From positions 160,001 to 224,000 of the forward strand of contig CP045477.1 of NCBI GenBank assembly GCA_009392915.1: DNA of 64,000 bases, in the 5' to 3' direction. A program made the translations under genes and the position numbers. The DNA is from Candidatus Forterrea multitransposorum CG_2015-17_Forterrea_25_41 (lineage in GTDB: Archaea; Iainarchaeota; Iainarchaeia; Iainarchaeales; CSSED10-239). The notes under the pieces are model-generated. The model did not search any database. It saw only the letters and a program-made list of their open reading frames with translations, and was not told where the DNA came from. This document shows positions 3,638 to 35,463 of the stretch, piece by piece (position 1 is the stretch's first letter; each line of letters starts with the position of its first letter).

Positions 3638-4396
3638 TTATTTTTTTTTACTTTTAAAAATAATTGTAGGTCCAATTAATCTTACTAATTTTAATGGATA
3701 TACTTTTTTCCAGAAGTTTTTTGTCCATCCTTTTTCTATTTTTTCATCAAATGGTTCAATTATTTCTTCAACAATAAAGTTATTATCTACAAGGCATTTA
3801 TAAGTCTCACTAATTTTATGTGTGTACGCTATAAATTCTATTTTACTTCCATCTGGTCTAATTGTTTCTTGACTACATATTTTTAGTTTGTTGTAGTTTA
3901 AAACTAGTTTAGATGTTTTAGGATCTAAGCTTGAATAGAAAGGATGATCAAAACTAAAAACAAATAATCCATTTTTTTTTAAAACTCTGTTAACTTCTTT
4001 AAAACATTTTTTTAAATTAGGTATATACTGAAGTGCAAAAGCAGAAAAAACTATATCGTAACTATTTGATTTTATACCTTCAAGGTTTTGGATATTTTTT
4101 GTTGAAAAATCAACATTTACTTTTTCTTTTTTTGCAAGTTCTTTTGCATATTTTATTTGTTCTACACAAATATCTAATCCTTTACAAACTGCACCTCTTT
4201 TTGCAAAAGCAATTGAACATTGTCCTCCTCCACACCCAATTTCTAGAATCTTTTTGTTTTTTATATTTCCTAGTAATTTAAGTTTATCTTCGTGAGGCGC
4301 ATATGGTCCATAATGAGCATAGCTTGTACTTATTGTTGATTTTTCTTGATATTTTTTAGAAGATGCTTCCCAATATTTTTTAATTTTTTTAATCAT
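3638..4396 (-). CDS. Class I SAM-dependent methyltransferase
   Basis: Motif I ILEIGCGGGQCSIAFAKRG is followed by an acidic loop DICVEQI and a post-I D/N-x-F pattern. 252 aa. Confidence 0.7.
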   Translation of the reverse strand: MIKKIKKYWEASSKKYQEKSTISTSYAHYGPYAPHEDKLKLLGNIKNKKILEIGCGGGQCSIAFAKRGAVCKGLDICVEQIKYAKELAKKEKVNVDFSTKNIQNLEGIKSNSYDIVFSAFALQYIPNLKKCFKEVNRVLKKNGLFVFSFDHPFYSSLDPKTSKLVLNYNKLKICSQETIRPDGSKIEFIAYTHKISETYKCLVDNNFIVEEIIEPFDEKIEKGWTKNFWKKVYPLKLVRLIGPTIIFKSKKK

Positions 4397-4403
4397 ATTA
4401 ATT

Positions 4404-4970
4404 CTATTCTTTATAAGTCTCTTTATATCTTTTTAATGCTCTTAAAATTTCTTTTTGAGCCTCTTTTCTACCTTTTATTCCCATAATTGTGGATTTTTTT
4501 CCTTGAAGTTCTTTATATGTTTCAAAGAAATGTCTAATCTCTAAAATAACATGATCACTAAAGTCTTTAATATCCATTCTCTTATCCATTCTAGGGTCTG
4601 TTGAATGAACTGCAATTATTTTTTCATCTTTTTCATTATTGTCAACCATAAACATTACACCTATAGGTTTTGCTTTAACAATAACTCCTGGTGCTACAGG
4701 ATAATTTGAGATAATAATAATATCAAGTGGATCATTATCTTCAGATAAAGTTTGTGGAATAAAACCATAGTCTCCAGGATAATGTACTGCAGAATAAAGT
4801 ACTCTATCAAGTTTTATATGTCCTGAATCTTTATCAAGTTCGTATTTTAAGATACTACTTTTTGGAACTTCAATAAAAGCTGTTACTTCTTCAGGTATAT
4901 TTTCTCCAGGGCTAAGTTCATGCCATGGGTGTTGTACATGTTTTATTTTCTTATTCATTTTTTCTCGCAT
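4404..4970 (-). CDS. ppa: Family I inorganic pyrophosphatase
   Basis: HPWHELSPGENIPEEV...IEVPKSS..KYELDKDSG..KLDRVLYSAVHYPGDYGFIPQTL.EDNDPLDIII is the classic soluble PPase signature. Confidence 0.9.
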   Translation of the reverse strand: MREKMNKKIKHVQHPWHELSPGENIPEEVTAFIEVPKSSILKYELDKDSGHIKLDRVLYSAVHYPGDYGFIPQTLSEDNDPLDIIIISNYPVAPGVIVKAKPIGVMFMVDNNEKDEKIIAVHSTDPRMDKRMDIKDFSDHVILEIRHFFETYKELQGKKSTIMGIKGRKEAQKEILRALKRYKETYKE

Positions 4971-5059: not shown

Positions 5060-5455
5060 TTGTCTTTACATATTATATTTAAGAATATTTATTTTAATTA
5101 TAAAAGGGAGAGATATAATATGGAATATGTCTTTAAGATTGAAAAAAAAGTAACACATATGGAAAGTCCTTCTAGAAATACTTTAGAAGAAAACACAATA
5201 GCTGTAGAAATTAATGATTCTTTTGAAGAAGATGGTAATGATGGTCATGTTTTTAAATTATTGTCTGCAAATGGAAAAGATGCATGCTTAGAGTATGATA
5301 GACATTATTTAGTTAAAAATGAACATAAAGGTTATGAGTTTAATACAGACTTAATAATTAACCAACCAAAACAAATAACTTCAATGTGGGGTCCTAAACA
5401 AATAACTTATACTTTAACTTATTTAGGAATCTACGGTGAACATTTTAAAGAATAA
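5060..5455 (+). CDS. Hypothetical protein (131 aa)
   Basis: Intact ORF in a dense gene context. No recognisable motif. Confidence 0.35.
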   Translation: MSLHIIFKNIYFNYKRERYNMEYVFKIEKKVTHMESPSRNTLEENTIAVEINDSFEEDGNDGHVFKLLSANGKDACLEYDRHYLVKNEHKGYEFNTDLIINQPKQITSMWGPKQITYTLTYLGIYGEHFKE

Positions 5456-5457
5456 AT

Positions 5458-5805
5458 ATGTATAAACAAATAATTCTTGTAAGAAATGATTTAAAGCTTG
5501 GAAAAGGCAAGATTGCTGCCCAAGCTTCTCATGCATCTTTAGAAAGTTATCTTTTAACTTCAAGAAAAACTCCTTCTATTGCAGAAAATTGGCTTTCTGA
5601 AGGTCAAAAGAAAGTTGTTTTAAAAGTTGAAAGTAGAGAAGAACTTTTAAAAGTCTTTCAAGAAGTAAAATCTTATTTTCCTGCAGTCTTAATTAAAGAT
5701 GCAGCTCATACACAATTAAAGGAACCTGATTTTACTTGTGTTGGTGTTGGTCCTATTAAGGAATTTGAAATTGATAAGTTTACAAAAAGATATAAGTTAT
5801 TATGA
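5458..5805 (+). CDS. pth2: Archaeal-type peptidyl-tRNA hydrolase (PTH2)
   Basis: LGKGKIAAQASHASLESY and the C-terminal block match the PTH2 family. 115 aa. Translationally coupled to flanking genes. Confidence 0.85.
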   Translation: MYKQIILVRNDLKLGKGKIAAQASHASLESYLLTSRKTPSIAENWLSEGQKKVVLKVESREELLKVFQEVKSYFPAVLIKDAAHTQLKEPDFTCVGVGPIKEFEIDKFTKRYKLL

Positions 5806-22208: not shown

Positions 22209-23612
22209 ATGGGCTTTGGAGAAAAATTAAAAAGTGCAATTGATAAAATTAAAAATTCAATGCATGTTGATAAAGATTTAATTAAAGAAGTTATTAAAGA
22301 TATTCAAAGAGCATTGATCTCTTCAGATGTAAATGTACAACTAGTTTTAAAAATTTCAAAAGAAATAGAAACTGAAGCTTTTGAAAAAATCCCTGAAGGT
22401 CTTTCAAGAAAAGAACATTTAGTTAAAACTTGTTATGATGTTATTTTAAAATATATTGGTGGAAGAGAACAAAAAAAGCTTCCTGAAAATCCAGAAACAA
22501 TTCTTCTTTGTGGTCTTTTTGGTTCTGGTAAAACAACAACTACTGCAAAACTTGCAAAATTCTATAAAAAAAGAGGTTTTAAAGTTGGAGTTATTGCTGC
22601 AGATGTTTACAGGCCAGCAGCTTATGAACAACTTGAACAATTATCAAAGCAAGTAGATTGTATTTTTTATGGTGAAAAAGAAAATAAAGTTGCAGGAGAA
22701 GTTGTTAAAAATGGTCTTTCTATTTTAAAGAAAAAAGGAGCTAATCTTATAATTGTTGATTCTGCTGGTAGATCTGCTTTAGACCAAGAGCTTACCAAAG
22801 AGCTTAAAGAAATACACTTACAATTAAATCCTAAATTTTCATTTTTAGTTCTTTCTGCAGATATTGGACAGGCTGCAAAAGATCAAGCTGAAAACTTTAA
22901 TCAAGCAGTTGGAGTTAATGGTGTAATAATAACTAAGCTTGATGGTTCTGCAAAAGGTGGTGGAGCTTTAACTGCTTGTTATATTACAAATTCTCCAATA
23001 TATTTTATTGGAACTGGAGAAAAAGTTGATGATTTAGAAATTTTTGATGCAAATAGATATCTTTCAAGAATCTTAGGTTTTGGGGATTTAGAAGGTCTTT
23101 TAGAAAAAGTTAAAGAACTTCAAGAAACTGAAGATTTACAAGATGTTAATCCTGATGATATTTTAAAAGGAGATTTTTCATTTTATCTTTTTAAAAAACA
23201 AATTTCAGCTGCTAAAAAATTAGGTCCTTTTAATAAGATTATAGGTATGCTTGGTATTGGTGGTAACATTTCAAAAGATCAAATGAATTTAGGTCAAGAA
23301 AAAATGAAAAAATATAAAGTTATGCTTGATTCTTTTACAAAAAAAGAACTTTATTTTGAACCTCAAGAAATAAATAAAAGCAGAATTAAAAGAATTTCAA
23401 ATGGTTCTGGAACAAAAGAAGAAGAAGTAAAAGAACTTGTTTCTCATGTTAAAAAAATGAAAAAAATGTTTAAACAATTTTCATCAAAAGGTGGAGGTTC
23501 TGCTGGAATGATGAAAAAGATGTTTGGTGGAAAAATGCCTGACATGTCAAAATTTAATGACATGGATCCTAAACAAATGGAAGATATGGCAAAGCAGTTT
23601 AAACTAAAATAA
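22209..23612 (+). CDS. srp54: Signal recognition particle protein SRP54
   Basis: GLFGSGKTTTTAKLA, DVYRPAAYEQL, DSAGR and a Met-rich C-terminal M-domain (MMKKMFGGKMPDM). Confidence 0.9.
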   Translation: MGFGEKLKSAIDKIKNSMHVDKDLIKEVIKDIQRALISSDVNVQLVLKISKEIETEAFEKIPEGLSRKEHLVKTCYDVILKYIGGREQKKLPENPETILLCGLFGSGKTTTTAKLAKFYKKRGFKVGVIAADVYRPAAYEQLEQLSKQVDCIFYGEKENKVAGEVVKNGLSILKKKGANLIIVDSAGRSALDQELTKELKEIHLQLNPKFSFLVLSADIGQAAKDQAENFNQAVGVNGVIITKLDGSAKGGGALTACYITNSPIYFIGTGEKVDDLEIFDANRYLSRILGFGDLEGLLEKVKELQETEDLQDVNPDDILKGDFSFYLFKKQISAAKKLGPFNKIIGMLGIGGNISKDQMNLGQEKMKKYKVMLDSFTKKELYFEPQEINKSRIKRISNGSGTKEEEVKELVSHVKKMKKMFKQFSSKGGGSAGMMKKMFGGKMPDMSKFNDMDPKQMEDMAKQFKLK

Positions 23613-23619
23613 AAAGGAT

Positions 23620-24483
23620 TTGTGTATTTTAATGATTGAAATAATTTTATTTATTAAACTTTTTATAATATTAATTGCCACAAGTATAGGTGCTTGGACA
23701 GACTATAAAACAGGGTATATCTATAACTGGATAACTTTTCCTTTAATTATCTTAGGTTTATTATTATTAATTTTAGAATCTTTTGTTTTATTTAATCTTG
23801 GTTGGTTTTATTTTTTAAAAGTGTTTATAATTGGTTTATTAATATATGGTATTGGTTATTTATTTTATTATTTTGGAAAATTAGGAGGAGGAGATGTAAA
23901 ATTATTTTTAGGAATTCATCTTTTAGTTCCTTATGTAAATGGTCAACTTTTAATTTTATGGGTTTTAATTTTATCTTCTCTATTATCTGTCTTAATTGTT
24001 TCAATTAAATATTTATTTATTCTTTTTAGAAAAATTACATTTACTGAATTTAAAAAAATTATAAAAACAAGAACCTCTAAAATGATTATTTATTTATTAA
24101 TGTTTATTTTTTTTGTTTTTCTCTTATATTCTGCAATCTATAATGTTGGTTTTTCAAAATATTATTACTTATTATTAATTCCTATATTTATAGGTCTTTT
24201 AACAGTTTTATTTGAAGAAGAAATTAAGAAATATATTTATCTTAAAAGAAAAGTTTTAAGGAAAATAGAAGAAGGAGATGTTTTAGCAATTGAGTTTTTA
24301 TCAAAAGAACTTCTTAATAAACTAAATATGGGAAATAGACAAGTTATTGAAGAAAAAGATTTATTGATTATTAAAAATTTAGATGTTAAATCTTTACCTA
24401 TATATGATAATCTTCCAAGATTTGGACCTTATATACTTTTAGGTTTTATTTTTTCTTTTTTATATTTATTTTTCTTATTTTAA
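23620..24483 (+). CDS. A24-family prepilin/preflagellin peptidase (PibD/FlaK-like), a polytopic membrane protein
   Basis: The first catalytic Asp is in IGAWTDYKTGYI and the second in YFGKLGGGDVKLFLG (GxGD-like). Multiple TM helices. It is the likely processor of the KRKA| and KG|A signal peptides in this window. Confidence 0.55.
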   Translation: MCILMIEIILFIKLFIILIATSIGAWTDYKTGYIYNWITFPLIILGLLLLILESFVLFNLGWFYFLKVFIIGLLIYGIGYLFYYFGKLGGGDVKLFLGIHLLVPYVNGQLLILWVLILSSLLSVLIVSIKYLFILFRKITFTEFKKIIKTRTSKMIIYLLMFIFFVFLLYSAIYNVGFSKYYYLLLIPIFIGLLTVLFEEEIKKYIYLKRKVLRKIEEGDVLAIEFLSKELLNKLNMGNRQVIEEKDLLIIKNLDVKSLPIYDNLPRFGPYILLGFIFSFLYLFFLF

Positions 24484-24505
24484 GGAATAATTAAAAAAAG
24501 GTTAC

Positions 24506-25702
24506 TTGAAAAATATGTATTTTAATCTTCATTCTGGAAAAAAGATTTTTATTCAAGATAAATCTTTTCAATTTATTTTTGTAGTTTTTTTAATTAGTTT
24601 AGGAATTGGTATATTTGATGCTATTTTTTCAATTTATTTAGAAAATATTTTAAAAGATCCTTCTCTTGTTGGTTTTGTAAGTGCAATCATTACAATGATT
24701 ATGTTTTTTACATATCTTTTTTTAACACAAATGTATTCTAAATATCCAGTAACTCATGTTTGGCTTGTAAGTACTTTGCTTATGGGTTTTTGTTTATTTT
24801 TACTTTATTTTTTTTCACAAATAGTTATCTTTGCAATACTTATTGGTTTAGTTGTAATTTCTATGACTCTTCATTTTAATACTACAGCAATTATTTTAAG
24901 GCATTCCAGTACTCTAGAAAATATTGGTAAAATTCAAGGTTATTATTATACTTTTAGAAATATTGGTTGGGTTATAGGTCCATTAATCTCAAGTTTTATT
25001 TTATATAAGTTTGGACTTTTAAATAATTTTCTTGCAATTGGTTTATTTATATTTTCTGGTTGGCTTTTATTCTTATATTATCAAATTAAGGCTTATGAAG
25101 AAAATAAACCTCAAACAATTAGTTTAAAGTCAATAAGACAAAATATTGTTGATTATTTTAGAAATAAAGAATTATTTAAATTATATTTTCTAAGAGGTGC
25201 ACTTTCTCTATATTGGTCTGTATTTTATATATTTACTCCATTATATATTTTGTATAATGGACTTTCAATAAGTTTTATTGGAATTTTTTTAGGAGTTGCA
25301 ACAATTCCTGTTGTTGTTATTGAATATTTTATTGCAAAGAAAATTGATGTTATTTTAAAAAAAGAATTATTTATTACAGGAAGCTTTTTAATTTCTTTAT
25401 TTTTAATTTTAGCTTTTGTTTTTAGTGGATATATTTATTTAAGTTTAATTTTTATATTACTTTCAATAATTGGTGCTGGTTTTTTAGAACCAACTTGTGA
25501 AACTTATTTCTTTAATAATGTAAATCAGTTTATTGCAGATAGATATTATGGTGTTTATAGAACTTCAGATTCTTTATTTAGTTTAACTTCTAGACTTTTC
25601 TTTGGTTTTATTTTATTATTTTTAAAGATTAAGTTTATATATTTATTTACAGGTATATTCTTTATACTTATATATTTTATTTCAAAAAACATAAAAAATT
25701 AG
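24506..25702 (+). CDS. Polytopic membrane transporter, MFS-like
   Basis: About 12 predicted TM helices over 398 aa with a short cytoplasmic central loop. No precise family motif. Confidence 0.4.
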   Translation: MKNMYFNLHSGKKIFIQDKSFQFIFVVFLISLGIGIFDAIFSIYLENILKDPSLVGFVSAIITMIMFFTYLFLTQMYSKYPVTHVWLVSTLLMGFCLFLLYFFSQIVIFAILIGLVVISMTLHFNTTAIILRHSSTLENIGKIQGYYYTFRNIGWVIGPLISSFILYKFGLLNNFLAIGLFIFSGWLLFLYYQIKAYEENKPQTISLKSIRQNIVDYFRNKELFKLYFLRGALSLYWSVFYIFTPLYILYNGLSISFIGIFLGVATIPVVVIEYFIAKKIDVILKKELFITGSFLISLFLILAFVFSGYIYLSLIFILLSIIGAGFLEPTCETYFFNNVNQFIADRYYGVYRTSDSLFSLTSRLFFGFILLFLKIKFIYLFTGIFFILIYFISKNIKN

Positions 25703-25711
25703 GTTTTATTT

Positions 25712-26821
25712 ATGAGTTTTACAATTACAAAAAAAGATAAAAAAACAAATGCAAGAATTGGTATTTTTAAAACTAATCATGGAACCATAAAGACTCCTTT
25801 TTTTATGCCAGTTGTAACTAAAGGAATTGCAAAGTTTATAACTTTAGATATTTTAGATGATATTAAAACACAATGTTTTATTTCAAATTGTTATTTATTA
25901 TACTTAAAACCAGGAAAAGAACTTTTAGAAAAAACAAAAGGTTATCATAATTTTATAAATTGGAAAAAACCTATTTTTACAGATTCTGGTGGGTTTCAAC
26001 TTAAAAATCCAAGTTTTTTTATATCAATGAATGATAAAGGAGTTTGGTTTAAATCTCCTTTTGATGGATCTAAACATTTTATGTCTCCTGAAAAAGTAAT
26101 TGAGATGCAGAATGTTATTGGTTCTGATATTGCAATGATATTAGATGATATGCAAGATGCTAATCTTTCAAGAGAAGCTTATGAAATTGCAACTGATAGA
26201 ACTATAGCTTGGGCAAAAAGAGCTATCCTTGCACATAAAAATAAGAAGCAAATGCTTTTTGGAATAGTTCAAGGTGGTGTATATAAGGATTTAAGAGAAA
26301 AATGTGCAAAAGAAATAAATAAACTTCCATTTGATGGTCTTGCAATTGGTGGACTTGCTTTAGGTGAGCCTAAAGAATCCATGCATAAAGCAATTGATTA
26401 TTCTTTAAAACATTTAGATGAAGAGAAAATAAAATATTTAATGGGTTTAGGATCTCCAGAAGACATTATTGTTTCAATTGGTAAAGGAGTTGATTGTTTT
26501 GATTCTATATATCCTACAAAAATGGCAAGACATGGTTTTATTTTTACAAGAAAAGGTCCTATTTTTTTAAAGAAAGCAAAATATAAAGATGTTTTTGAGC
26601 CTATTGAAAAAGATTGTGATTGCCCTACTTGTAAAAGGCATACACTTGCATACCTTCATCATCTTTTAAGACTTGATGAGCCAGGTGTTAAGATTCTTTT
26701 ATCTATTCATAATATTAGATTTTTACATAGGCTTTTAGAAGATTCTAGAAAAGAAATAGAAAAAGGAACTTTTGAGAGTTTTCAAAAGAAATTTTTAAAA
26801 GAATTTAAAAAAAGAGATTAA
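25712..26821 (+). CDS. tgtA: Archaeosine tRNA-guanine transglycosylase, catalytic domain
   Basis: TGT fold with a zinc site CDCPTCKRHTLAYLHHL. Motifs FMPV.TKG, FTDSGGFQL and LGSPEDI. Confidence 0.85.
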   Translation: MSFTITKKDKKTNARIGIFKTNHGTIKTPFFMPVVTKGIAKFITLDILDDIKTQCFISNCYLLYLKPGKELLEKTKGYHNFINWKKPIFTDSGGFQLKNPSFFISMNDKGVWFKSPFDGSKHFMSPEKVIEMQNVIGSDIAMILDDMQDANLSREAYEIATDRTIAWAKRAILAHKNKKQMLFGIVQGGVYKDLREKCAKEINKLPFDGLAIGGLALGEPKESMHKAIDYSLKHLDEEKIKYLMGLGSPEDIIVSIGKGVDCFDSIYPTKMARHGFIFTRKGPIFLKKAKYKDVFEPIEKDCDCPTCKRHTLAYLHHLLRLDEPGVKILLSIHNIRFLHRLLEDSRKEIEKGTFESFQKKFLKEFKKRD

Positions 26822-26846
26822 AGAATAGTTTTTAAAAAAATAAAAA

Positions 26847-27299
26847 CTATCTTAAAAATAATTTAGCAATCTTATATTTAATAGATCTAAAAAAACCTTT
26901 AGTCTTAATCTCAAGTTCTTTTGTTTTAAAAGCTTGATTAATTTCTGTCATTGGATCTTCTGCTTCTAAGATTCTATTTATTACTTCTTCTTTTCCTGTA
27001 ATCCAAACATTTACGTTTTCAATATTTTCTTTTGTAACTTTATATTCTTTATTTTCAAGTCTTTCAATAAAAATTTCTAAAGGTTCTTCAGTTGTTTGAA
27101 TCTCAATTTTCATTTTATCATTTTTAATTGCATTTTGTGCAATTTTTGGTAATTGTTCAATGTTGTTTACAAAGTCTATTTTTACTTCGTCTATATTTTC
27201 ATAATAATATCTAATATCTTTTGATTCTGCAAAAACCATTGTGCTATTAAATATTAATAATGCTAAAGTTATTCCAAATAATATATTTTTATAGTTCAT
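26847..27299 (-). CDS. Secreted hypothetical protein (150 aa)
   Basis: N-terminal signal peptide MNYKNILFGITLALLIFNSTMVFA. Confidence 0.35.
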   Translation of the reverse strand: MNYKNILFGITLALLIFNSTMVFAESKDIRYYYENIDEVKIDFVNNIEQLPKIAQNAIKNDKMKIEIQTTEEPLEIFIERLENKEYKVTKENIENVNVWITGKEEVINRILEAEDPMTEINQAFKTKELEIKTKGFFRSIKYKIAKLFLR

Positions 27300-27325
27300 A
27301 AAGTATTTAAAGCTTCAAAATATTT

Positions 27326-27994
27326 TTAAATAAGATTGTTTTCTTTAAATGAGAAATATTTTTGATTTGTAATTATTAAATGATCTAAAAAAGTTATCTC
27401 TAAAAGCTTGCAAGCTTCTTTTATTTTTGTCGTAGCTATTTTATCTTCTCTTGAAGGATAACATTCTCCTGAAGGGTGATTGTGTGCTATGATTATTGCT
27501 TGAGCATTTTCTTTTAAAGCTTCTTTTAATATTTCTTTTTCAGAAACTAAGGTTTGGTTATCTGTTCCAATAGTTATTATTTTTTTTGAAATAACTTCGT
27601 TTCCTTTTAGAAATAGTGTGATTAAATGTTCTTGTTCTTTATTTTCAATATCATGTCTTAATATTTCATATGCTGTTTTTGGAGAATAAATTTTTTCTGA
27701 AGTTTTTATATTTTTTATAGATATCCTTTTGTAAAGTTCTATGATTGCTTTTATTTGAGAGGCTTTTACAATACCAATACCTTTTATCTTAAGAAGTTGA
27801 TTAATTGATATATTTTCAAGATCTTGAAAGGTATATCTTGAAAGAATCTGGTTTGATATATCTAGAACATTATATTCTTTTGTTCCTGTCTTTAGAATGA
27901 TTGCTAGAAGTTCGCTATTTGATAGACTTTTTTCTCCATCTCTTGAAAGTCTTTCAAGAGGTCTGTTTTCTGGTGCTATATCTTTTAGTCTCAT
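27326..27994 (-). CDS. radC: RadC-like JAB/MPN-domain protein
   Basis: N-terminal helix-hairpin-helix region (KIKGIGIVKASQI) plus the JAMM motif IIIAHNHPSGECYPSREDKIATTKIKEAC. Confidence 0.8.
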   Translation of the reverse strand: MRLKDIAPENRPLERLSRDGEKSLSNSELLAIILKTGTKEYNVLDISNQILSRYTFQDLENISINQLLKIKGIGIVKASQIKAIIELYKRISIKNIKTSEKIYSPKTAYEILRHDIENKEQEHLITLFLKGNEVISKKIITIGTDNQTLVSEKEILKEALKENAQAIIIAHNHPSGECYPSREDKIATTKIKEACKLLEITFLDHLIITNQKYFSFKENNLI

Positions 27995-28140
27995 TTTATT
28001 TAAAAAAGAAAATAAATATTTCTCTCCACTAATAAATATACTTAATCCTTTATTTAAGGGAGGGGAAAAAAAGGTCTTTCCATAAAAGAAAGTACCTTTC
28101 TAATAGATGCATATTTCTAAATAATATATATCCTTTAACA

Positions 28141-28190
28141 AATATATCTCTTTTCAAGCAGGGGGTAGCTGGCCGAGTAAATTAATTTAG
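28141..28190. repeat. GC-rich 50-nt direct repeat, copy R1 (aatatatctcttttcaagcagggggtagctggccgagtaaattaatttag), upstream of the radC-like gene when read on the minus strand
   Basis: 50/50 identical to R2 at 28856-28905. The first 30 nt are identical in R3 at 29943-29972. The GC-rich core is anomalous in this AT-rich genome. Confidence 0.8.
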
Positions 28191-28513
28191 TATTTAAATC
28201 TCTTTTCATAACTTTTATGATTAAACCATTCTATAATAATAGATATAATTTTAATTTGATCACTTTTAATTGTGTATACTAATCTCCATCCATTAAATAG
28301 ATTATATTTCCAAAGGTTTGTAATTTTATATTTTTTAATATATTCTTTTGGCCATAATTTTTTTGAAATTTTAATTCCAGAAGTAGGATCTTTTTTAAGA
28401 GTTTCAATTGCTTTTAGAATATTTTTATACAAATCATGATTTTCTTTAAGGTTTTCAAAATTAATTTCTAATTCTCTTGAAACAAATACAACATAATTTT
28501 CTTTATCAATCAT
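28187..28513 (-). CDS. relE: RelE/ParE-superfamily toxin (type II toxin-antitoxin system)
   Basis: 108 aa. ...LWPKEYIKKYKITNLWKYNLFNGWRLVYTIKSDQIKIISIIIEWFNHKSYEKRF follows the RelE/YafQ pattern (W.Y.L...WRLVY.I......I....H). Overlaps the upstream antitoxin ORF by 4 nt. Confidence 0.65.
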   Translation of the reverse strand: MIDKENYVVFVSRELEINFENLKENHDLYKNILKAIETLKKDPTSGIKISKKLWPKEYIKKYKITNLWKYNLFNGWRLVYTIKSDQIKIISIIIEWFNHKSYEKRFKY

Positions 28514-28779
28514 CTTAATTTAACACCTAAAGATAATATTTTTGAAATATTTTTTTTATCATATATCCAAATTACAATATTATCTTTATCAATAATAATC
28601 TTACTAGATTCTTCTAGATATTCAAGAATTATTTTGTATGTCTGATACATCATTTTTTTAGGTATTTTTTTCCATAATTGATAGATAGTATACTGAGAAC
28701 TATATTTTTTAATAGTATTTTCAACCATTAAGATACTCTCAAGCTTTGGACTATGATATTTTATTTTTTCTTTAGGCAT
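28510..28779 (-). CDS. Putative antitoxin partner of the RelE-family toxin. Start taken at MPKEKIKYHS.
   Basis: An 89-aa ORF immediately upstream of, and overlapping, the toxin gene. The ORF-track start at 28872 would run through repeat R2 and is probably too long. Confidence 0.4.
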   Translation of the reverse strand: MPKEKIKYHSPKLESILMVENTIKKYSSQYTIYQLWKKIPKKMMYQTYKIILEYLEESSKIIIDKDNIVIWIYDKKNISKILSLGVKLR

Positions 28780-28855
28780 ATTATATAACTTTATATAAGT
28801 TAAATTTTTAAATATTTTTATTTGCCTAAAGTATATATTAATATGTGTTTTAAAA

Positions 28856-28905
28856 AATATATCTCTTTTCAAGCAGGGGGTAGCTGGCCGAGTAAATTAA
28901 TTTAG
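28856..28905. repeat. GC-rich 50-nt direct repeat, copy R2, upstream of the antitoxin-toxin operon
   Basis: Identical to R1. Confidence 0.8.
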
Positions 28906-29904
28906 AACTTTTTTTAATTCTTTTTCATTTGGTAAAAATGTACTTAATTTTTTAGGAATTTTAGATAATTTGTATTCTGCTATTCCTAATGGATATTTAT
29001 TATTTAATAAAGAATATTCTACTATTGTCTTATTCTTAGATTTACATATTAATAATCCAATAGTTTCTTTATCTTCTTTTCTTTTCATATCTTTATTTAT
29101 TACATTAATATAAAACCCTATTTGGCCAAGATATTCTGGTTTGAATTCAGTAATTTTTAATTCAATTACTATAAATCTTTTTAAAATATAATTATAAAAT
29201 AATAAATCTATATAAAAATCTTTATTTCCAACATTAATTTTAAATTGTTTTCCAATAAATGCAAATCCTTTTCCTAATTCTATTAAAAATTTAGATATAT
29301 TTGAAACAATAGATTCTTCTAATTCTTTTTCATTAAATTCTTCTTTTAAATGTAAAAAATCTAATATATAATTTTCTTTAAAATAATTTAAAATAAATTT
29401 TGAATCTTTTTTTGGAAGTGTGTTTAAAAAATTAATGTTTATGTTTTTTTTTCTTGCATATAAATTTAATTCTATTTGATGTTCTAATAATACTTTAGAC
29501 CATAAATTATTAATTGATTCTTGAATATAGAAAAGTGCTTCTTCTTTATTTTTAATTTTATCTAGAATTAATCTTATTTGATTCCAAGGTAATTGTGCCA
29601 CAACTTGTGGCACATTTTCTGTTTTAAAAAATAAATAGAATTTTCTCATATAAAATAAATTTCTTCTCGAAAAACCTTTTACATTAGGGAATTCTTTTCT
29701 TAAATCTTTTTCTATTTGCCCAATTAAATTTATTCCCCAATTACTTTCTTTTTGTTTAAAATAAATTTCTTTTCCAAGAGTGTAATAAAGATTAATTAAT
29801 TCTGAATTTACTTTTAATATTGCATTTTGTCTTGATTTAATAATGTTTTCTTTAATTTTAGAAATAAATTCTATATATTCTTTATTAAATATATTTTTTT
29901 CCAT
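28897..29904 (-). CDS. YhcG-like DUF1016 protein with a C-terminal PD-(D/E)XK nuclease domain
   Basis: The N-terminal region resembles DUF1016 (KENIIKSRQNAILKVNSELINLYYTLGKEI). The C-terminal DLLFYNYILKRFIVIELKITEFKPEYLGQIGFYIN carries the D...E.K restriction-endonuclease-like motif. Confidence 0.65.
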   Translation of the reverse strand: MEKNIFNKEYIEFISKIKENIIKSRQNAILKVNSELINLYYTLGKEIYFKQKESNWGINLIGQIEKDLRKEFPNVKGFSRRNLFYMRKFYLFFKTENVPQVVAQLPWNQIRLILDKIKNKEEALFYIQESINNLWSKVLLEHQIELNLYARKKNININFLNTLPKKDSKFILNYFKENYILDFLHLKEEFNEKELEESIVSNISKFLIELGKGFAFIGKQFKINVGNKDFYIDLLFYNYILKRFIVIELKITEFKPEYLGQIGFYINVINKDMKRKEDKETIGLLICKSKNKTIVEYSLLNNKYPLGIAEYKLSKIPKKLSTFLPNEKELKKVLN

Positions 29905-29942
29905 ATCTTATCTATTCTAGATATATTTTATATTTTTACAAA

Positions 29943-29982
29943 AATATATCTCTTTTCAAGCAGGGGGTAGCTAGCTGAGTAA
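29943..29982. repeat. GC-rich direct repeat, copy R3 (the first 30 nt identical, then agctgag in place of ggccgag), upstream of the yhcG-like gene
   Basis: aatatatctcttttcaagcagggggtagct is identical, followed by a variant tail agctgagtaaa. Confidence 0.75.
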
Positions 29983-30083
29983 AAAAGATTAAATTTTAAT
30001 TTCTATAGCCAATAACCTACATTAACATTATAAACTCTTTCTCTCTTAAATATATTATTAAATATAAAAAATAAGATTATATT

Positions 30084-31298
30084 ATGAGATATTCACATTC
30101 TTCCATGGAGACTTTTAGAAATTGTCCTCTTCAATTTAAATATAAGTATATTGAAAAAGTAGATATACCTATTAAAAATAATATAGAAGCATTCATGGGT
30201 TCAATGGTCCATAATACTTTAGAAAAATTATATACAGATCTAAAATATAATAAATTATTATCTTTAGATGAAGTATTAGATTATTACAATAAATCTTGGA
30301 CAGATAATTTTTCATTTGATAAAGTAGAAATTATAAGAGAAGGTTATACTGAAGAAAACTACAAGTCTTTAGGTCAAGATTACCTAAAAAATTATTATAA
30401 TACTTATAAACCTTTCAATCAAGGAAAAACTATTGGCCTTGAAATGCAAGTAAATATTTCTTTATATGATAAAGAAAGACAAAAAACTTATGATCTTATA
30501 GGTTATATTGATAGACTTTCTTTAGTTTCAGATAATCATATAGAAATTATAGATTATAAAACAAATAATTCTGCAAAAACTCAACAAGAGGTAGATGTTG
30601 ATAAACAACTTGCTCTTTATTCTATAGCAATTAAAGAAAAATTTCCTTTTGTTGAAAAAATAGATCTTTGTTGGTTTTTTTTGTCAGCTGGTATAAAACA
30701 AGTTTCAACAAGAACTGTAGATGATTTAGAAAAATTAAAACAAGAAACAATAGAAATTATAAGGGAGATCGAAGATTCTAAGCAAAAAAATAATTTTCCA
30801 GGTAAACCTTCTGCTCTTTGTGATTGGTGTGCTTTTAGGTCAATTTGTCCTTTTAAAGCACACGATGTTATTACTAAAAATCTTTCAGAAAATGAATATT
30901 TAAAAGAAGAGGGTGTTTTCTTAGTTGATAAGTATCAAGAATTTACTGAAAAAAAGAAAGCTTTACTTGATGAAATTGATCCAGAGATTGAAAAGGTAAA
31001 AGAAGCAATAATTAATTATTCTAAAAAGAATAATTTAGAAAAGCTTTTTGGAAAAGAAAAATCTTTAATTGTAAAAGAATATTCTTCTTTTAAAATACCT
31101 GAAAAAAAATCAAAAGAAAGAGAAGAACTTGAAGCTCTTTTAAAGGAAAATAATTTTTGGCCTTTTGTTTCTGATCTTTCATATATAGAAATTTCAAATC
31201 TTATAAAAAATGGTTTTTTTGAAAGTTCTTTTAAAGAAAAACTTTTAAAATATTTAAAAGAAGAAAAAATAAATAGACTTTATTTAAATAAAAAATAA
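30084..31298 (+). CDS. PD-(D/E)XK-family nuclease with a C-terminal Cys cluster (Cas4/RecB-like nuclease fold), with no CRISPR nearby
   Basis: Catalytic block GYIDRLSLVSDNHIEIIDYKTN (D...E.K). The cysteine cluster CDWCAFRSICPF plus an N-terminal CPLQF suggests a 4Fe-4S-binding Cas4-like domain. Confidence 0.6.
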   Translation: MRYSHSSMETFRNCPLQFKYKYIEKVDIPIKNNIEAFMGSMVHNTLEKLYTDLKYNKLLSLDEVLDYYNKSWTDNFSFDKVEIIREGYTEENYKSLGQDYLKNYYNTYKPFNQGKTIGLEMQVNISLYDKERQKTYDLIGYIDRLSLVSDNHIEIIDYKTNNSAKTQQEVDVDKQLALYSIAIKEKFPFVEKIDLCWFFLSAGIKQVSTRTVDDLEKLKQETIEIIREIEDSKQKNNFPGKPSALCDWCAFRSICPFKAHDVITKNLSENEYLKEEGVFLVDKYQEFTEKKKALLDEIDPEIEKVKEAIINYSKKNNLEKLFGKEKSLIVKEYSSFKIPEKKSKEREELEALLKENNFWPFVSDLSYIEISNLIKNGFFESSFKEKLLKYLKEEKINRLYLNKK

Positions 31299-31300
31299 TT

Positions 31301-31564
31301 TTATTTATTTCTCATAAAAAACTCTAAAACTTCTTGTTTAGTTTTACCTGTTTTTTCTGCAACTTCTTTAATAATAATTTCTACAAATTTAGAAGATACT
31401 ACTTTATTTCCTTTTTTTAAAATTATTTCTCTACCATGACTATCTCTAAAAACAATATGTCTATGGTTTCCTTTTTCCTTTTCAAAACCAAGTTTATTGT
31501 ATATTCTTTCAAGTTGTTCTGGTCTTAATGTTGAAGGTTTTTTTCCATTAAAAGGTTTTGCCAT
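31301..31564 (-). CDS. hicA: HicA-like (YcfA family) mRNA-interferase toxin, with no recognisable HicB partner
   Basis: LERIYNKLGFEKEKGNHRHIVFRDSHGREIILKKGNKVVSSKFVEIIIKEVAEKTG follows the HicA pattern (l.k.Gf....kGSH..f.hp.g....vP.h...l..g.l.sIlkqag). Confidence 0.5.
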   Translation of the reverse strand: MAKPFNGKKPSTLRPEQLERIYNKLGFEKEKGNHRHIVFRDSHGREIILKKGNKVVSSKFVEIIIKEVAEKTGKTKQEVLEFFMRNK

Positions 31565-31578
31565 TTTTAATCTTTCCT

Positions 31579-32142
31579 TTATTTAAAATCCATATTTATT
31601 TTAATTTCTTCTAAAACAGCAGTAATAAATTCATTTAAGGGTATATTTAGTTTAGTTTCACATAATCTTATTTCTTCTCTTGAAACAGCTGCTGCAAATG
31701 TTTTGTCTTTAAATTTTTTAATAATAGATTTTGTTTCTGCATTTTTAATTTCTTTATCTGGTCTCATTAAAACATATGCTCTAATAATTCCAGTTAAGCC
31801 ATCTACAGAAAAGAGAGCATTTTCTACAGTTTCTTTTCTTTCTATTTTCAAAGCATCGTTATGTGATTTAATAATATCTATTATCTCTTGAGAGATTCCT
31901 TCTTCTTGTAATATTTTTTCTCCAACTAAACAATGCACATTAATATCTCCATTATATTTTTCAATATCAATGTCATGGAGTGCACCAATCAAAAACCATT
32001 CTTCTTGTTTTTCTTCTGGTAATTTAAGATATTTAGAAACTCCTTTCATTCCATAACCTACCATTAAACAATGTTCAAGGTTTGCTTTTTCTTTAATATG
32101 TTTGTTTAATATTTCTATAGTTTTTTCTTTTGTATTGTTCAT
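31579..32142 (-). CDS. HD-domain phosphohydrolase
   Basis: His...HD...D motif (LMVGYGMKG...FLIGALHDIDIEKYNGD). 187 aa, lying 15 nt upstream of the hicA-like gene. Confidence 0.55.
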   Translation of the reverse strand: MNNTKEKTIEILNKHIKEKANLEHCLMVGYGMKGVSKYLKLPEEKQEEWFLIGALHDIDIEKYNGDINVHCLVGEKILQEEGISQEIIDIIKSHNDALKIERKETVENALFSVDGLTGIIRAYVLMRPDKEIKNAETKSIIKKFKDKTFAAAVSREEIRLCETKLNIPLNEFITAVLEEIKINMDFK

Positions 32143-32154
32143 ATTTTAAAACCT

Positions 32155-35100
32155 TTAATTTTGATATTTATATCTTACAATAACAATTCCAGAACCACCA
32201 TTTCCACCATTTGCTGATGAATTTGTTGCTGATCCGTTTCCACCATTTCCTGTGTTTGCAGCAGCAGAAGATGCATCTGAGTGAGCATCACCACCTTTAG
32301 CATAAGTGTTTCCCCAAATGGTCATACCAGGACCTCCATTAGGTACTGTTCCAGGTCCTCCCGCTCCTCCTCCTCCACCAGCTCCAACATTAACAACAGA
32401 GGTTGCACCAGGATATCCAAATCCTGTATTAGGATACCCATCATTTGTACTTGGTTGTGTTGCACTTCCACCATTTGCAGGCACTGCACTATAAAGGTTT
32501 GCACCTCCACCTGAACCACCTGATGTACCATCTCTGGAAGGATTATCTCTTGATCCTCCACCACCACCACCATATGCAATTAAATTTTTAAATACAGAAT
32601 TATTTCCATTATTTCCTGTAAAGTCTTGATTTGTAGAACCTGTTCCTCCTGCTCCTACAGTAACAGTAATATTTCCAGTACTTGAAAGTGTGTAGTCTTC
32701 AACATATACAAGACCTCCAGCACCTCCTCCTCCAGGATTTCTTAAAGTATTTGTTCCTGCTTTTCCAGCACCTCCACCACCACCAACAACTAAAACATCT
32801 ACTTTTCCCTCTCCTAATGTTGTTACATTAAATGTTCCACTTGATGTAAAAGTATGATATTTATAGTCTCCAGAAGTTGTAACTGTTCCTCCTGTTGCTT
32901 CTAAATATCCTTGATTTATTGTTAAGTTTATAGATGCTCCTGCTGTTTGATATTGATCATTTACTATTAAAGTTATCTTATGTTCTCCTGATGATAGATT
33001 AGTTGTTGAAAAGTTACAAGTTGAACTTAAAGTTCCATCTATATTTGAATCCCAATAACATGAATGGCTTCCAGATGGATTTGTAATTGTTGAATTAAAA
33101 GTTAGGTTTTCGCCATAATTATGTGTTGATGAGTTTGAGGGAGTATCAATTGTAACTGATATTGGATTAGGTATGCTACGCATAAATATCCAAGATATAC
33201 CTACAATTCCAATTTCTTCAACTCTTAATAAAGGAATTGTACCATCGGGATCAAATGAAGAAATACTGACTGATGTAAAATCTCCACTTGTTCCTGTTAC
33301 AACTGTTGAATTATTAATTATTAAATTTCCTGAATTTGAAGAATAAGATGCAGCAGTAGATCCTAATCCATAATAGACTCTTAATTGGTTTATGTCACTA
33401 GGTCCATTCCATGTATTCATTGTAAGTAATCCATTATCTGCAGGTCCACTATAGAAAAATGATAAAAATTCAGGTCTTCTTGTATAACTTGCAAAATTAA
33501 CATTTACTCCATCATTATAATGTGTATAATAATCTAGATTATAACCATATGTAGATAGATCTGTAGTTAATATACGGTTACCATTCCATGCAGGATAAGA
33601 TGAGTCATAAGTATTATCTGTTGAAAATGAAGAATACAACATCCAACCTCCTCCATTATCTTCCATATTACAATAAATTTGAGTTGGAACTCCGTCTTTT
33701 AATATCCAATAAACTCCGTTTGTAGCACTTGGATTGTTATTTTTAATATACATTGCAGAAGGTGCTGCTTTTTCTGAAGAACTTCCATCTAAATCTATAA
33801 TTGTTATTGAAATATTTTTATCTATAGTTTGTTCTTGATCAGTAACAGATAATGTTATTGTATGTTCTCCAACTGTTAAACTACTTGTTGAAAAATCACA
33901 ATTACTTGATAAACTTCCATCTATAGATGATACCCAAGAACAACTATAACTTCCGTTTTCATTTTCTATTTGAGAATTAAAATCAATTGCTTCTCCAAAA
34001 CTGAATGTTTGTAAGTTTGTAGGAGAATTAATATTTATTGTAAGTTCTTCAACATATTCATTTTTAGTATTATCATAAATTGCTTTAATTTCATTTAAAT
34101 TTAAACTTCTGCCATATAGTCTATAGTCTGAAATCATTCCTTTAAAATATCTTGTATTTGTAGAATTTATTCCAAATTTAACTCCTCCACCTTGTGTTTC
34201 ATAACTATAAATTTCTTCTAATGTTTTTTCTAAGTTTCCATTAATATAACCTTTTAAAGTTTTTAATGTTTCATCATATGTAACTGTATAATTAATCCAT
34301 TTATTTTCTTCAACAGGATCTGAAAGCTCATAAGTTGAATATCCTCCATCTAAATCTCTCCATCTTATTTCCATTTTTTTATCAACAGGATTAATACTAA
34401 CTCTAAGATTATTTTTTTGAGACCAAAAGAAACTTTCATGTTCTAAACTTTGATTTTCTGTATAATATATCCATCCATTTATTGTAAATGAACTATAATC
34501 ACCTACATTTGAAACATTAATATAATCATTAGCTCCATCTAAATTTAATTTAGAACTACTATTCCAATTTGCAGTTCCAACAATACTTCCATTATTAGAA
34601 TTTCCTGAATAATCGTATACTGTGCTTCCTTCTCCTTCATCTATTTTCCAATATCCAATTATTTGATAATCAATACAGTCAAGTACATTATAGTTATTTG
34701 TTTTAATAGGTTTTACAATTTCTCTCCCTTTATCTGTATTTAATTTTAATATATAATTTTCTTCAGGAGCACATACAACATCTATTTCTTTAGTTTCTTT
34801 TTTTTCAATAGTTATTGGTTCTTCAAAAAATATATTTTTATTTAAATATTCTGTATCAACAGCATCTGATGCAATAAAATAACTAGTTAATACTAAATCT
34901 TGATTAATATTGTTGTTTGAAAGTACAATACTTTGATTTACAACTTCTTCAATTAAGATTTCATCTCCAATTCTTTGTATCTCAATTATAGGAATATTAT
35001 TATTTTTATCCACAACACTAAATCTTAATTCTTCAAGTCCAGGCATAATATCAATGTAGTTATAAAAAAGAATATTATTATTATAATCAATATTATAAAG

Positions 35101-35463
35101 TAGACTTGTTTCTTGTCTATTAATTATAAGTGATCCTATTTGGCTTTGTGTTTTTAGATTTTCAATACTTCTTTTATTTTTAATTTCTTGTCTTAAATAA
35201 AGATTACTTGAGTTATTATCAACTGTAATTGGGTCACTTAAATCTAAATAAACTTCTTTATAGCTTCCAACTTCTGAATCTTTTAAATCTGTTAAAATAT
35301 CATTAATATATGCTAAGTTATCTCTGTTGTTTTTCATTCTTTGTGAATCTTCTAGAGTTCCAAAATAATTCATTGCAAAATAAATAAATATACCTAAAAA
35401 TATAATACTTACAAAAAGAATTGCTATTCCTGAAAATAAAGATGTTACTCCTTTTTGATTCAT
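32155..35463 (-). CDS. Giant pilin-signal adhesin (1102 aa) with a class III signal peptide, LamG/ConA-like domain, PKD-like domains, a fibrinogen-related domain and a Gly-rich C-terminal beta-rich domain
   Basis: Signal MNQKG|VTSLFSGIAILFVSIIFLGIFIYFA. LamG_3 region IGYWKIDEGEGSTVYDYSGNSNNGSIVG...TINGWIYY. PKD-like repeats ending GEHTITLSVTDQEQT / GEHKITLIVNDQYQT. Fibrinogen motif GVYWILKDGVPTQIYCNMEDNGGGWMLY. C-terminal VDVLVVGGGGGAG...GGGGAGG...GSGIVIVRYKY. Confidence 0.7.
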   Translation of the reverse strand: MNQKGVTSLFSGIAILFVSIIFLGIFIYFAMNYFGTLEDSQRMKNNRDNLAYINDILTDLKDSEVGSYKEVYLDLSDPITVDNNSSNLYLRQEIKNKRSIENLKTQSQIGSLIINRQETSLLYNIDYNNNILFYNYIDIMPGLEELRFSVVDKNNNIPIIEIQRIGDEILIEEVVNQSIVLSNNNINQDLVLTSYFIASDAVDTEYLNKNIFFEEPITIEKKETKEIDVVCAPEENYILKLNTDKGREIVKPIKTNNYNVLDCIDYQIIGYWKIDEGEGSTVYDYSGNSNNGSIVGTANWNSSSKLNLDGANDYINVSNVGDYSSFTINGWIYYTENQSLEHESFFWSQKNNLRVSINPVDKKMEIRWRDLDGGYSTYELSDPVEENKWINYTVTYDETLKTLKGYINGNLEKTLEEIYSYETQGGGVKFGINSTNTRYFKGMISDYRLYGRSLNLNEIKAIYDNTKNEYVEELTININSPTNLQTFSFGEAIDFNSQIENENGSYSCSWVSSIDGSLSSNCDFSTSSLTVGEHTITLSVTDQEQTIDKNISITIIDLDGSSSEKAAPSAMYIKNNNPSATNGVYWILKDGVPTQIYCNMEDNGGGWMLYSSFSTDNTYDSSYPAWNGNRILTTDLSTYGYNLDYYTHYNDGVNVNFASYTRRPEFLSFFYSGPADNGLLTMNTWNGPSDINQLRVYYGLGSTAASYSSNSGNLIINNSTVVTGTSGDFTSVSISSFDPDGTIPLLRVEEIGIVGISWIFMRSIPNPISVTIDTPSNSSTHNYGENLTFNSTITNPSGSHSCYWDSNIDGTLSSTCNFSTTNLSSGEHKITLIVNDQYQTAGASINLTINQGYLEATGGTVTTSGDYKYHTFTSSGTFNVTTLGEGKVDVLVVGGGGGAGKAGTNTLRNPGGGGAGGLVYVEDYTLSSTGNITVTVGAGGTGSTNQDFTGNNGNNSVFKNLIAYGGGGGGSRDNPSRDGTSGGSGGGANLYSAVPANGGSATQPSTNDGYPNTGFGYPGATSVVNVGAGGGGGAGGPGTVPNGGPGMTIWGNTYAKGGDAHSDASSAAANTGNGGNGSATNSSANGGNGGSGIVIVRYKYQN

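Follow-up and report, generated by a model that had tools for sequence, protein, structure and literature searches.

A short promoter-region element that probably bounds an accessory-gene hot spot in a small DPANN archaeal genome

Chromosomal integration hot spots flanked by core genes, and 'minimal mobile elements' driven by homologous recombination, are known in bacterial genomics. The locus described here lies in a 64,000-nucleotide stretch of contig CP045477.1 (positions 160,001 to 224,000; "the window" below means this whole stretch) from a DPANN archaeon ('Ca. Iainarchaeum') with a genome of about 0.66 Mb and 24% GC. It carries three copies, R1, R2 and R3, of a repeat family that we call E. 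Like the bacterial systems, it has conserved flanks (radC and a RecB-like nuclease gene at one site of E, a small open reading frame (ORF) and cdc6 at the other), accessory genes that vary between lineages, and a turnover that homologous recombination could explain. Unlike them, its insertion point is a conserved element of about 40 nt, which is duplicated around inserts and marks two hot spots per genome. We propose that the locus is probably a repeat-bounded accessory-gene hot spot, in which the repeat is a duplicated, clade-specific promoter-region element and genes turn over by recombination between E copies. What carries the proposal is a comparison of related sequences, in which E is found at two loci, gene content varies at both, one strain lacks exactly one module, and E is the same within a genome while it diverges between species.

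The repeat AAATATATCTCTTTTCAAGCAGGGGGTAGCTGGCCGAGTAAATTAATTTAG, 50 nt long, occurs twice in identical form in the window, with the coordinates and the sequence that the initial annotation had reported, and a third, altered copy lies beside the nuclease leader. The copies are as follows.

28141-28190, plus strand: R1, the E copy beside the radC leader; its last 9 nt, TTAATTTAG, are a duplicate of the YhcG 3' end
28856-28905, plus strand: R2, the E copy that separates the YoeB-like module from the YhcG module; it holds the genuine YhcG stop codon
29943-29983, plus strand: R3, the E copy at the native position beside the nuclease leader; it has 2 mismatches to R1 and R2

The first 30 nt of the repeat do recur at 29943-29972, and the "variant tail" described earlier consists of two transitions (GGCC to AGCT), after which GAGTAAA matches again up to 29983. 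The start-to-start spacings of 715 and 1087 nt were likewise found as given, and they leave intervals of 665 and 1037 nt between the copies. When the 20-nt core was scanned with up to 3 mismatches, three copies were found in 64 kb versus none in 100 shuffles, and none of the three copies is expected by chance. The GC-rich core is conspicuous because the window has only about 24% G+C. A profile built from 10 divergent copies and run over the 64 kb found no further copy.

The left edge of each copy lies 147 nt (radC), 74 nt (a 90-aa ORF) or 39 nt (YhcG) from the next minus-strand ATG, roughly the 40-140 nt upstream of minus-strand genes noticed before. The stop codon of a YoeB/RelE-like ORF (28187-28189) falls within R1 and that of YhcG (28897-28899) within R2; thus each copy touches the 3' end of one module and precedes the next. 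Direct repeats at regular-looking intervals, and a duplicated repeat on both sides of an insert, are also features of clustered regularly interspaced short palindromic repeats (CRISPR). Here, on the other hand, the repeat occurs only 3 times, complete protein-coding genes make up the 'spacers' (665 and 1037 nt), and there are no cas genes. Since the intervals are whole genes, the locus is not a CRISPR array, and the spacings of 715 and 1087 nt with their gene-filled intervals bear out the same judgement in the initial annotation.

To follow E beyond the window, its core was scanned against one genome per species. Matches were found only in the metagenome-assembled genome (MAG) of 'Candidatus Iainarchaeum', apart from two chance matches in GC-rich bacteria; the bacterial matches, filed as L001, L003 and L006 (compared sequences bear L numbers), were rejected as chance occurrences in GC-rich DNA. 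Among the MAG contigs, L004 is 98.3% identical to window 23138-31141, and L002 carries a fourth E copy. This fourth copy (L002/L008) lies about 85 nt upstream of orc1/cdc6 in equal orientation, and its context is clearly chromosomal. A metagenome scan returned the same two loci, both on a single contig of 332 kb, where the copies are directly oriented and separated by about 190 kb. The scattered distribution of a miniature inverted-repeat transposable element (MITE), which had been raised as the case against a regulatory element, was not seen: E occupies 2 loci only in the whole MAG and in the 332-kb contig. A MITE was rejected on that count, and also on the lack of a further window copy and of terminal inverted repeats.

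Across species, E follows the pattern (A/C)TATAT-N3-TTTT(C/T)-N2-(10-12 nt, G-rich, species-specific)-TG(G/T)CCGAG-(A/T)AA. The span from TATAT to GAG is constant at 33 nt, except for 35 nt in the window species and in copy A of L015, and the L023 version is more diverged. The cdc6 orthologues form a graded series, of which six loci were compared. E lies upstream of cdc6, beside a divergent ORF of 54-59 aa, at every locus with at least 60% cdc6 identity (L002/L008, L013, L014, L015, L017/18 and L019). A cdc6 orthologue of 50% identity shares the synteny but has no E upstream, and E is therefore specific to a sub-clade. The ORF of 54-59 aa (L002 2842-3015 on the plus strand; L013, L015, L017, L019) has its own GGTG ribosome-binding site and is always divergent from cdc6 across E. 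Its product had no family match, and a small DNA-binding protein is a candidate identity for it.

The gene order TGT - 150-aa ORF - radC - nuclease is conserved across the related loci as well, with E between radC and the nuclease gene in L022 (a single copy), L023, L029 and L030. In L022 the spacer between the two genes is 260 bp with one E, which is the empty state. An orthologue of R3 stands in the same place in L022, L023 and L030, and alignment shows homology between the stretch that separates R3 from the nuclease gene and the one that separates E from the cdc6 start. From the orthologous single copy and the shared leader homology it follows that R3 is the native copy; the native left flank, the radC leader, has been retained by R1. 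On these alignments E is an intergenic element of about 40 nt, specific to its clade and native at two places, between radC and the nuclease gene and between the small ORF and cdc6.

Within the window, the array runs nuclease, E, YhcG, E, 90-aa ORF plus YoeB-like ORF, E, radC. The genes left of the nuclease in the array (radC, YoeB/RelE-like, 90-aa ORF and YhcG) are all on the minus strand. The features between and including the two borders are listed below.

27326-28140, minus strand: radC (gene 27326-27994; Pfam RadC, 1.2e-39) with its conserved leader of about 146 nt; by synteny, the conserved left border of the hot spot
28191-28855, minus strand: module 1, the 90-aa ORF (28510-28782) and the YoeB/RelE-like ORF (28187-28513), with a 4-nt overlap
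28897-29904, minus strand: module 2, a YhcG/DUF1016 PD-(D/E)XK nuclease gene of bacterial type (Pfam YhcG_C, 4.6e-55; DUF1016_N, 1.6e-39)
29984-30083, plus strand: nuclease upstream region, with a box A(A/C)CCTACATTA..ATTATAAAC shared with the stretch between E and the cdc6 start, and with TTAAATATAT, which is TATA-like and lies about 33 nt from the ATG
30084-31298, plus strand: RecB/Cas4-like PD-(D/E)XK nuclease gene (Pfam PDDEXK_1, 4.2e-34), the conserved right border of the hot spot

Comparison of species shows that what lies at the two E sites changes from one lineage to the next. The states found are given by locus.

L022, radC-nuclease site: empty; one E
L029, radC-nuclease site: a 70-aa KTSC gene; one full E and a TATA-like remnant
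L023-L028, radC-nuclease site: a HATPase_c_4 gene; one E
L030, radC-nuclease site: a 102-aa ORF and YhcG; two identical 40-nt E copies of that species' own version
Window, radC-nuclease site: two modules; three E
L015/L016, cdc6 site: a KilA-N gene; two E of about 88 nt

YhcG also occupies this locus in L030 but not in L022 or L029. The left E copy of L015/L016 contains the stop codon of KilA-N. The inserted genes all point one way, toward radC or the small ORF (5 independent modules). Judged by these comparisons, both E sites are insertion hot spots. Of the readings offered in the initial annotation, that of a recombination or cassette-boundary site is thus upheld, in that the intervening segments occur in some strains and species, are missing from others and differ in others again, with 1-2 copies at the junctions.

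The core genes and YhcG also differ in their distribution. The RecB/Cas4-like nuclease is a conserved core gene whose orthologues are graded from 84% to 40% identity. YhcG homologues, in contrast to the graded orthologue series of cdc6 and the nuclease, are patchy: after same-species matches and one 82% relative, identity falls to at most 65%, and these matches include many bacteria. Exact-protein look-ups of two cassette proteins returned the same genomic context only.

A strain that lacks one module gives the closest view of turnover. L007, which is 97-98% identical to the window, has a single E, with the left flank of R1 on one side and the right flank of R2 on the other, and exactly 715 bp are absent, the length of module 1 plus one E copy. 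L007 and L005 represent a slightly different strain (95-98% identical to the window), and both have the single E; the L007 junction is clean, and that of the L005 scaffold contains Ns and carries little weight. R1 was invariant in all 7 strain sequences. R2 has GGCC in the window and GGTC in L004, L009 and L012, and R3 has four alleles among the strains. Most changes in E between strains are G/C-to-A/T transitions or slippage in the G run, as expected for weakly constrained G/C in a genome of 24% G+C.

The strain differences in L004, L007, L009, L011 and L012 cluster at one tetranucleotide (window 28171-28174, 28886-28889 and 29973-29976), which is found as GGCC, GGTC, GGCT or AGCT. They also fall on the G5 run, with one deletion and one GG-to-CA change. 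Such changes could reflect deamination at a methylated site, or plain AT-biased decay. A second strain-level length polymorphism lies nearby, in a 1102-aa ORF (32155-35463; a Laminin_G_3/Gly-rich repeat protein), of which about 0.7 kb (window ~33100-33830) is absent in L011 and L012.

The sequence of the copies themselves bears on how they arose. The last 9 nt of R1 and R2 encode L-N-stop of YhcG, and the YhcG C-terminus, ..VLN*, is homologous to the ..VLK* or ..ILS* of other YhcG proteins. Because R1 lies beside the YoeB-like ORF and yet bears the YhcG 3' end, R1 was copied from the copy adjacent to YhcG. The YhcG end in R1 fits a local duplication, either a target duplication at insertion or unequal crossing-over with gene replacement, and it argues against a cassette that arrived with an independent attachment (att) site.

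Between the window species and L030, protein identity is 82% for YhcG, 85% for TGT, 76% for radC and 75% for the nuclease, so that YhcG has diverged about as much as the core genes beside it. E copies are identical within L030, and R1 equals R2 in the window; between these two species the G-rich stretch differs. Either gene conversion or re-creation from the resident element at each insertion could produce the sameness within a genome. Like the YhcG end in R1, this sameness combined with divergence between species points toward duplication in place and recombination among the copies, and away from cassettes with att sites of their own. In the window species the cdc6-site copy, at a distance of about 190 kb, agrees in its core with the island copies, and this core is nearer to the L013 cdc6-site core than to the L029 nuclease-site core; the resemblance is a hint that the two loci have exchanged sequence. 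Orthology was also seen between the 90-aa ORF, with the DNA upstream of it, and the 102-aa ORF of L030 (77% identity). In L030 the 102-aa ORF precedes YhcG within one module, while its window counterpart pairs with the YoeB-like ORF in the other module. Since the partner of this ORF differs between the two species, the module order has been permuted. The duplicated lengths vary, at 40, about 43, 50 and about 88 nt.

These patterns could be joined in the following way. The native E between radC and the nuclease gene would have been duplicated twice in the window species, together with a few flanking bases. Each added module would bring a duplication of E, leaving every leftward module with a copy upstream. 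Each copy appears to hold the TATA-like/BRE-like part of the leftward promoter region (BRE, transcription factor B recognition element), and since the copies carry this part, each module is proposed to retain its own upstream region. Identical copies would be substrates for looping-out, unequal crossing-over and gene conversion, and the simplest agent would be the general homologous recombination machinery. Recombination between copies may thereby add modules, delete them (L007), reorder them (the window versus L030) and homogenise them. The outcome would be a small hypervariable island of defence- or addiction-type genes at a fixed chromosomal address. In this scheme it is the promoter activity of E, the recombination pathway and the first entry of the foreign genes that we infer.

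Several points weigh against this reading. Two of the 5 insertions are without a full pair of copies (one copy in L023; one full copy and a TATA-like remnant in L029), and E duplication is therefore not obligatory. Homologous recombination accounts for loss, shuffling and homogenisation, but not for foreign genes landing at E at two loci, and the differing duplicated lengths (40 to about 88 nt) are also unaccounted for. TATA-like strings abound in AT-rich DNA, and mutations accumulate readily in R3, the native copy, from strain to strain. The single-E allele is found on one clean contig and one N-bearing scaffold, so that an assembly collapse across the 50-nt repeat is possible. The comparison covers part of each genome.

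The strongest competitor is that E is the att site of a dedicated, integron-like cassette capture, in which circular single-gene cassettes are moved by a trans-acting recombinase encoded elsewhere. Integrons are defined by IntI, attI and attC, and archaeal integrons and clusters of attC sites lacking integron-integrases (CALINs) have been described (Ghaly et al. 2022, PMC9668308). Both have short modules in tandem and in one orientation, a repeated site and a fixed address, the cargo is of toxin-antitoxin or nuclease type, and modules are present or absent between strains; the tandem pattern is also seen in L030 and L015. Cassette capture would further explain the compact modules whose stops abut the repeat, the presence of the same element at two unrelated loci (cdc6 and the nuclease) in different species, the sharp and similar edges (about 2-5 nt before TATATC to 3-4 nt past GAG) in the window R2/R3 pair and in L030, and the strain without exactly one module. 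The cargo (toxin-like, nuclease, KilA-N and KTSC genes) is also typical of cassettes.

E differs from an integron in that it has neither an attC fold nor R/L boxes and no IntI nearby, and in that it is a copy of the host's own promoter-region element with host-specific sequence. In addition, one E copy includes coding bases of its neighbour, and each module has its own upstream copy rather than one Pc promoter. When 75-121 nt around R1 and R2 were folded as RNA and as DNA on both strands, z-scores ran from -0.35 to +1.45 and no attC-type fold was seen; as the folds are no better than shuffles, E is not attC-like. Neither the scanned ORFs of the window nor the precomputed Pfam labels of the genes at more than 10 related loci include an integrase domain, the remaining genome not being searched. 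An independent, cassette-borne att site would not be expected to hold the 9 nt of YhcG coding end that R1 has, nor would the duplicated lengths be expected to vary from 40 through about 43 and 50 to about 88 nt. Moreover, the copies bear the G-rich version of the host species rather than that of a donor, and two insertions have no second copy.

The Xer/dif-exploiting elements (IMEX) and pdif modules offer another comparison, since their modules are likewise small, lack an integrase, have copies of a chromosomal recombination site at their edges and are mobilised by an enzyme of the host. However, inverted arms of 11 bp around a 4-10 bp spacer do not occur in E beyond chance level. In 11 E versions the best 11-N(4-10)-11 dyad matched at 6-8 of 11 positions, a score reached by 27-99% of shuffles, and E is therefore not a dif-type core; the lack of such a dyad also speaks against cassette capture. 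E differs further in having two native sites per chromosome, 190 kb apart and directly oriented, one of which adjoins cdc6 rather than lying in a terminus-like region (compare PMC2958812).

Because foreign-gene targeting, the unequal lengths and the two single-copy insertions are left unexplained by recombination alone, a dedicated enzyme stays a live, if unlikely, rival. The same low likelihood attaches to a cassette-docking platform free of attC and IntI, in which a candidate enzyme (a host recombinase, or a nuclease with staggered cuts on the two sides of E) would recognise E, insert single-gene modules and duplicate E.

E may also be read as a regulatory element. It contains a TATA-like box and belongs to both divergent promoter regions (that of radC and the nuclease gene, and that of the small ORF and cdc6). 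The minus strand of E reads ..TTGAAAAGAGATATATT.., a BRE/TATA-like arrangement, with further TATA-like strings within 30 nt. Putative core promoters to the right of E are AATAATCTTTTTAAAC for cdc6 (about -35) and TTAAATATAT for the nuclease (about -33). The G-rich core and the TGKCCGAG box, which lie between the divergent promoters, could be the site of a candidate regulator or of Orc1/Cdc6. A shared operator or upstream regulatory element, the other reading in the initial annotation, would be plausible.

A stronger form, in which E is purely cis-regulatory (the operator or upstream activating sequence of one regulator, or a box like the origin recognition box (ORB)) and co-regulates cdc6, the nuclease, radC and the inserts while its duplications are incidental, is less probable than cassette capture. 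The fixed internal spacing and the invariant boxes (TTTTC and TGKCCGAG) across species in two divergent promoter regions speak for it, as does the G-rich string adjoining cdc6, which is found in ORBs as well. The core also pairs with an inverted copy in the nuclease leader in L023 (z -4.25) and L030 (z -2.1). On the other hand, this explanation does not account for the variable content exactly at E, the module missing in L007 or the permuted order. The G-rich part changes fast between species, R3 decays between strains, and a more distant relative that shares the synteny lacks E.

The fourth copy and its orthologues, unlike the window copies, stand in the intergenic region directly upstream of orc1/cdc6; there E has in common with ORBs its conservation, its G-rich string and a lineage-specific sequence. 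Unlike ORBs, there is a single E per cdc6 intergenic region, no inverted pair around an unwinding element, and a second native copy at a locus without cdc6. An ORB cluster (by the criterion of PMC3528665) was accordingly rejected after a mismatch scan and a profile found a single copy per cdc6 intergenic region, with no second or degenerate copy. The GC skew of the window tracks gene orientation only.

Several observations concern the leaders on the two sides of E. In the radC leader (window 28035-28110, minus strand) an imperfect but conserved hairpin precedes a T-run and CCCCTCCC (on the plus strand AAGGGAGGGGAAAAAAAGG..). The hairpin is also found in L022 (~4760-4830), L029 (~4310-4370) and L030 (~4215-4270), and its stem sequence differs among the four species. 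Lying between E and radC, the hairpin might be part of an attenuator, a terminator or a small regulatory RNA. On the nuclease side, the 3' part of the native E pairs with a segment of the leader, with a 17-bp stem in L023 (4886-4937) and an 8-bp stem in L030 (2722-2694, minus strand). The inverted partner follows each species' own version of E, and the pairing is weak in the window and absent in L022. A small RNA or conserved RNA structure at E was rejected, as the window copies had no significant fold and the core-leader hairpin was found only in L023 and L030. A bacterial promoter and terminator scan gave results below shuffle expectation, and its model is not applicable to an archaeon.

Finally, the repeats might be att remnants of a larger virus or plasmid that integrated at a tRNA-like target and decayed to 1-2 genes, and this is very improbable: the core GCAGGGGGTAGC..GGCCGAG is superficially like the 5' end of a class II tRNA and mobile elements often carry KilA-N, toxin and nuclease genes, but no copy has a tRNA at or near it, all 3 of the E-flanked modules are compact without junk DNA or integrase fragments, and E is conserved at 'empty' sites within promoter regions. 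ARAGORN found 6 tRNAs, none near the repeats, and Rfam gave nothing at the gathering threshold or at E<=1, which excludes a tRNA or a split-tRNA half. The tRNA-Leu of the window differs in sequence, and the cross-species conservation pattern of E is unlike that of a tRNA. A viral or plasmid attP was rejected after the exact core and the degenerate family pattern were compared with 2.9 million viral contigs, which gave one chance match inside a viral ORF.

The inserted and neighbouring genes show further features. The YoeB/RelE-like ORF has weak family matches (Pfam, 22 bits versus a cut-off of 27; NCBIfam, 21 versus 51.8), and it aligns end to end with a YoeB in the PDB at E=1.4e-3. The 90-aa ORF, which stands upstream of it, has no family match and no PDB match, and its structure model was too poor for use (pLDDT 47). 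To the right of the nuclease, an 87-aa ORF and an HD-domain gene follow in the window (31301-32142). The counterpart pair in L023, with a weak HicA_toxin label, lies about 3 kb from the nuclease, and the right flank of the hot spot has therefore also been rearranged between species.

Other variation was seen in and around the two sites. The HATPase_c_4/HTH gene of L023-L028 (e.g. L025 4083-4832) is called as 130, 160, 219 or 249 aa while the nuclease protein is unchanged, which suggests frameshifts and ongoing decay. In L030 an RHH_12 and PIN_2 toxin-antitoxin pair (5061-5720) lies between radC and the 150-aa ORF without E, where the window has a gap of 26 nt. The interval between cdc6 and PCNA is also variable, with a Fic gene after short tandem repeats (L015 5093-6216), a 154-aa ORF (L017 4318-5307) or a 161-aa ORF (L032 4090-4617). 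In the window species (L002 1-1581) cdc6 is followed by ferredoxin and 2-oxoacid oxidoreductase genes, not by PCNA. About 85 nt to the right of L015 copy B were considered as a second KilA-N remnant and rejected, the alignment being gapped, AT-rich and unconvincing.

DPANN genomes are very small, and the gain and loss of their accessory and defence genes are poorly understood. The proposed hot spot has an architecture defined by sequence, an element of about 40 nt at two fixed addresses, one of them beside the replication initiator gene, around which toxin-like, nuclease and KilA-N genes turn over, sometimes with E duplication. If homologous recombination alone is responsible, this would be an ordinary, well-documented hot spot; the involvement of a dedicated enzyme would make it a new mechanism of cassette capture. 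A docking platform, if true, would be a functional analogue of integrons in very small genomes, or of CRISPR repeat duplication with genes as 'spacers'. E offers a searchable marker of variable islands in this clade and a test case for short-repeat recombination in reduced genomes.

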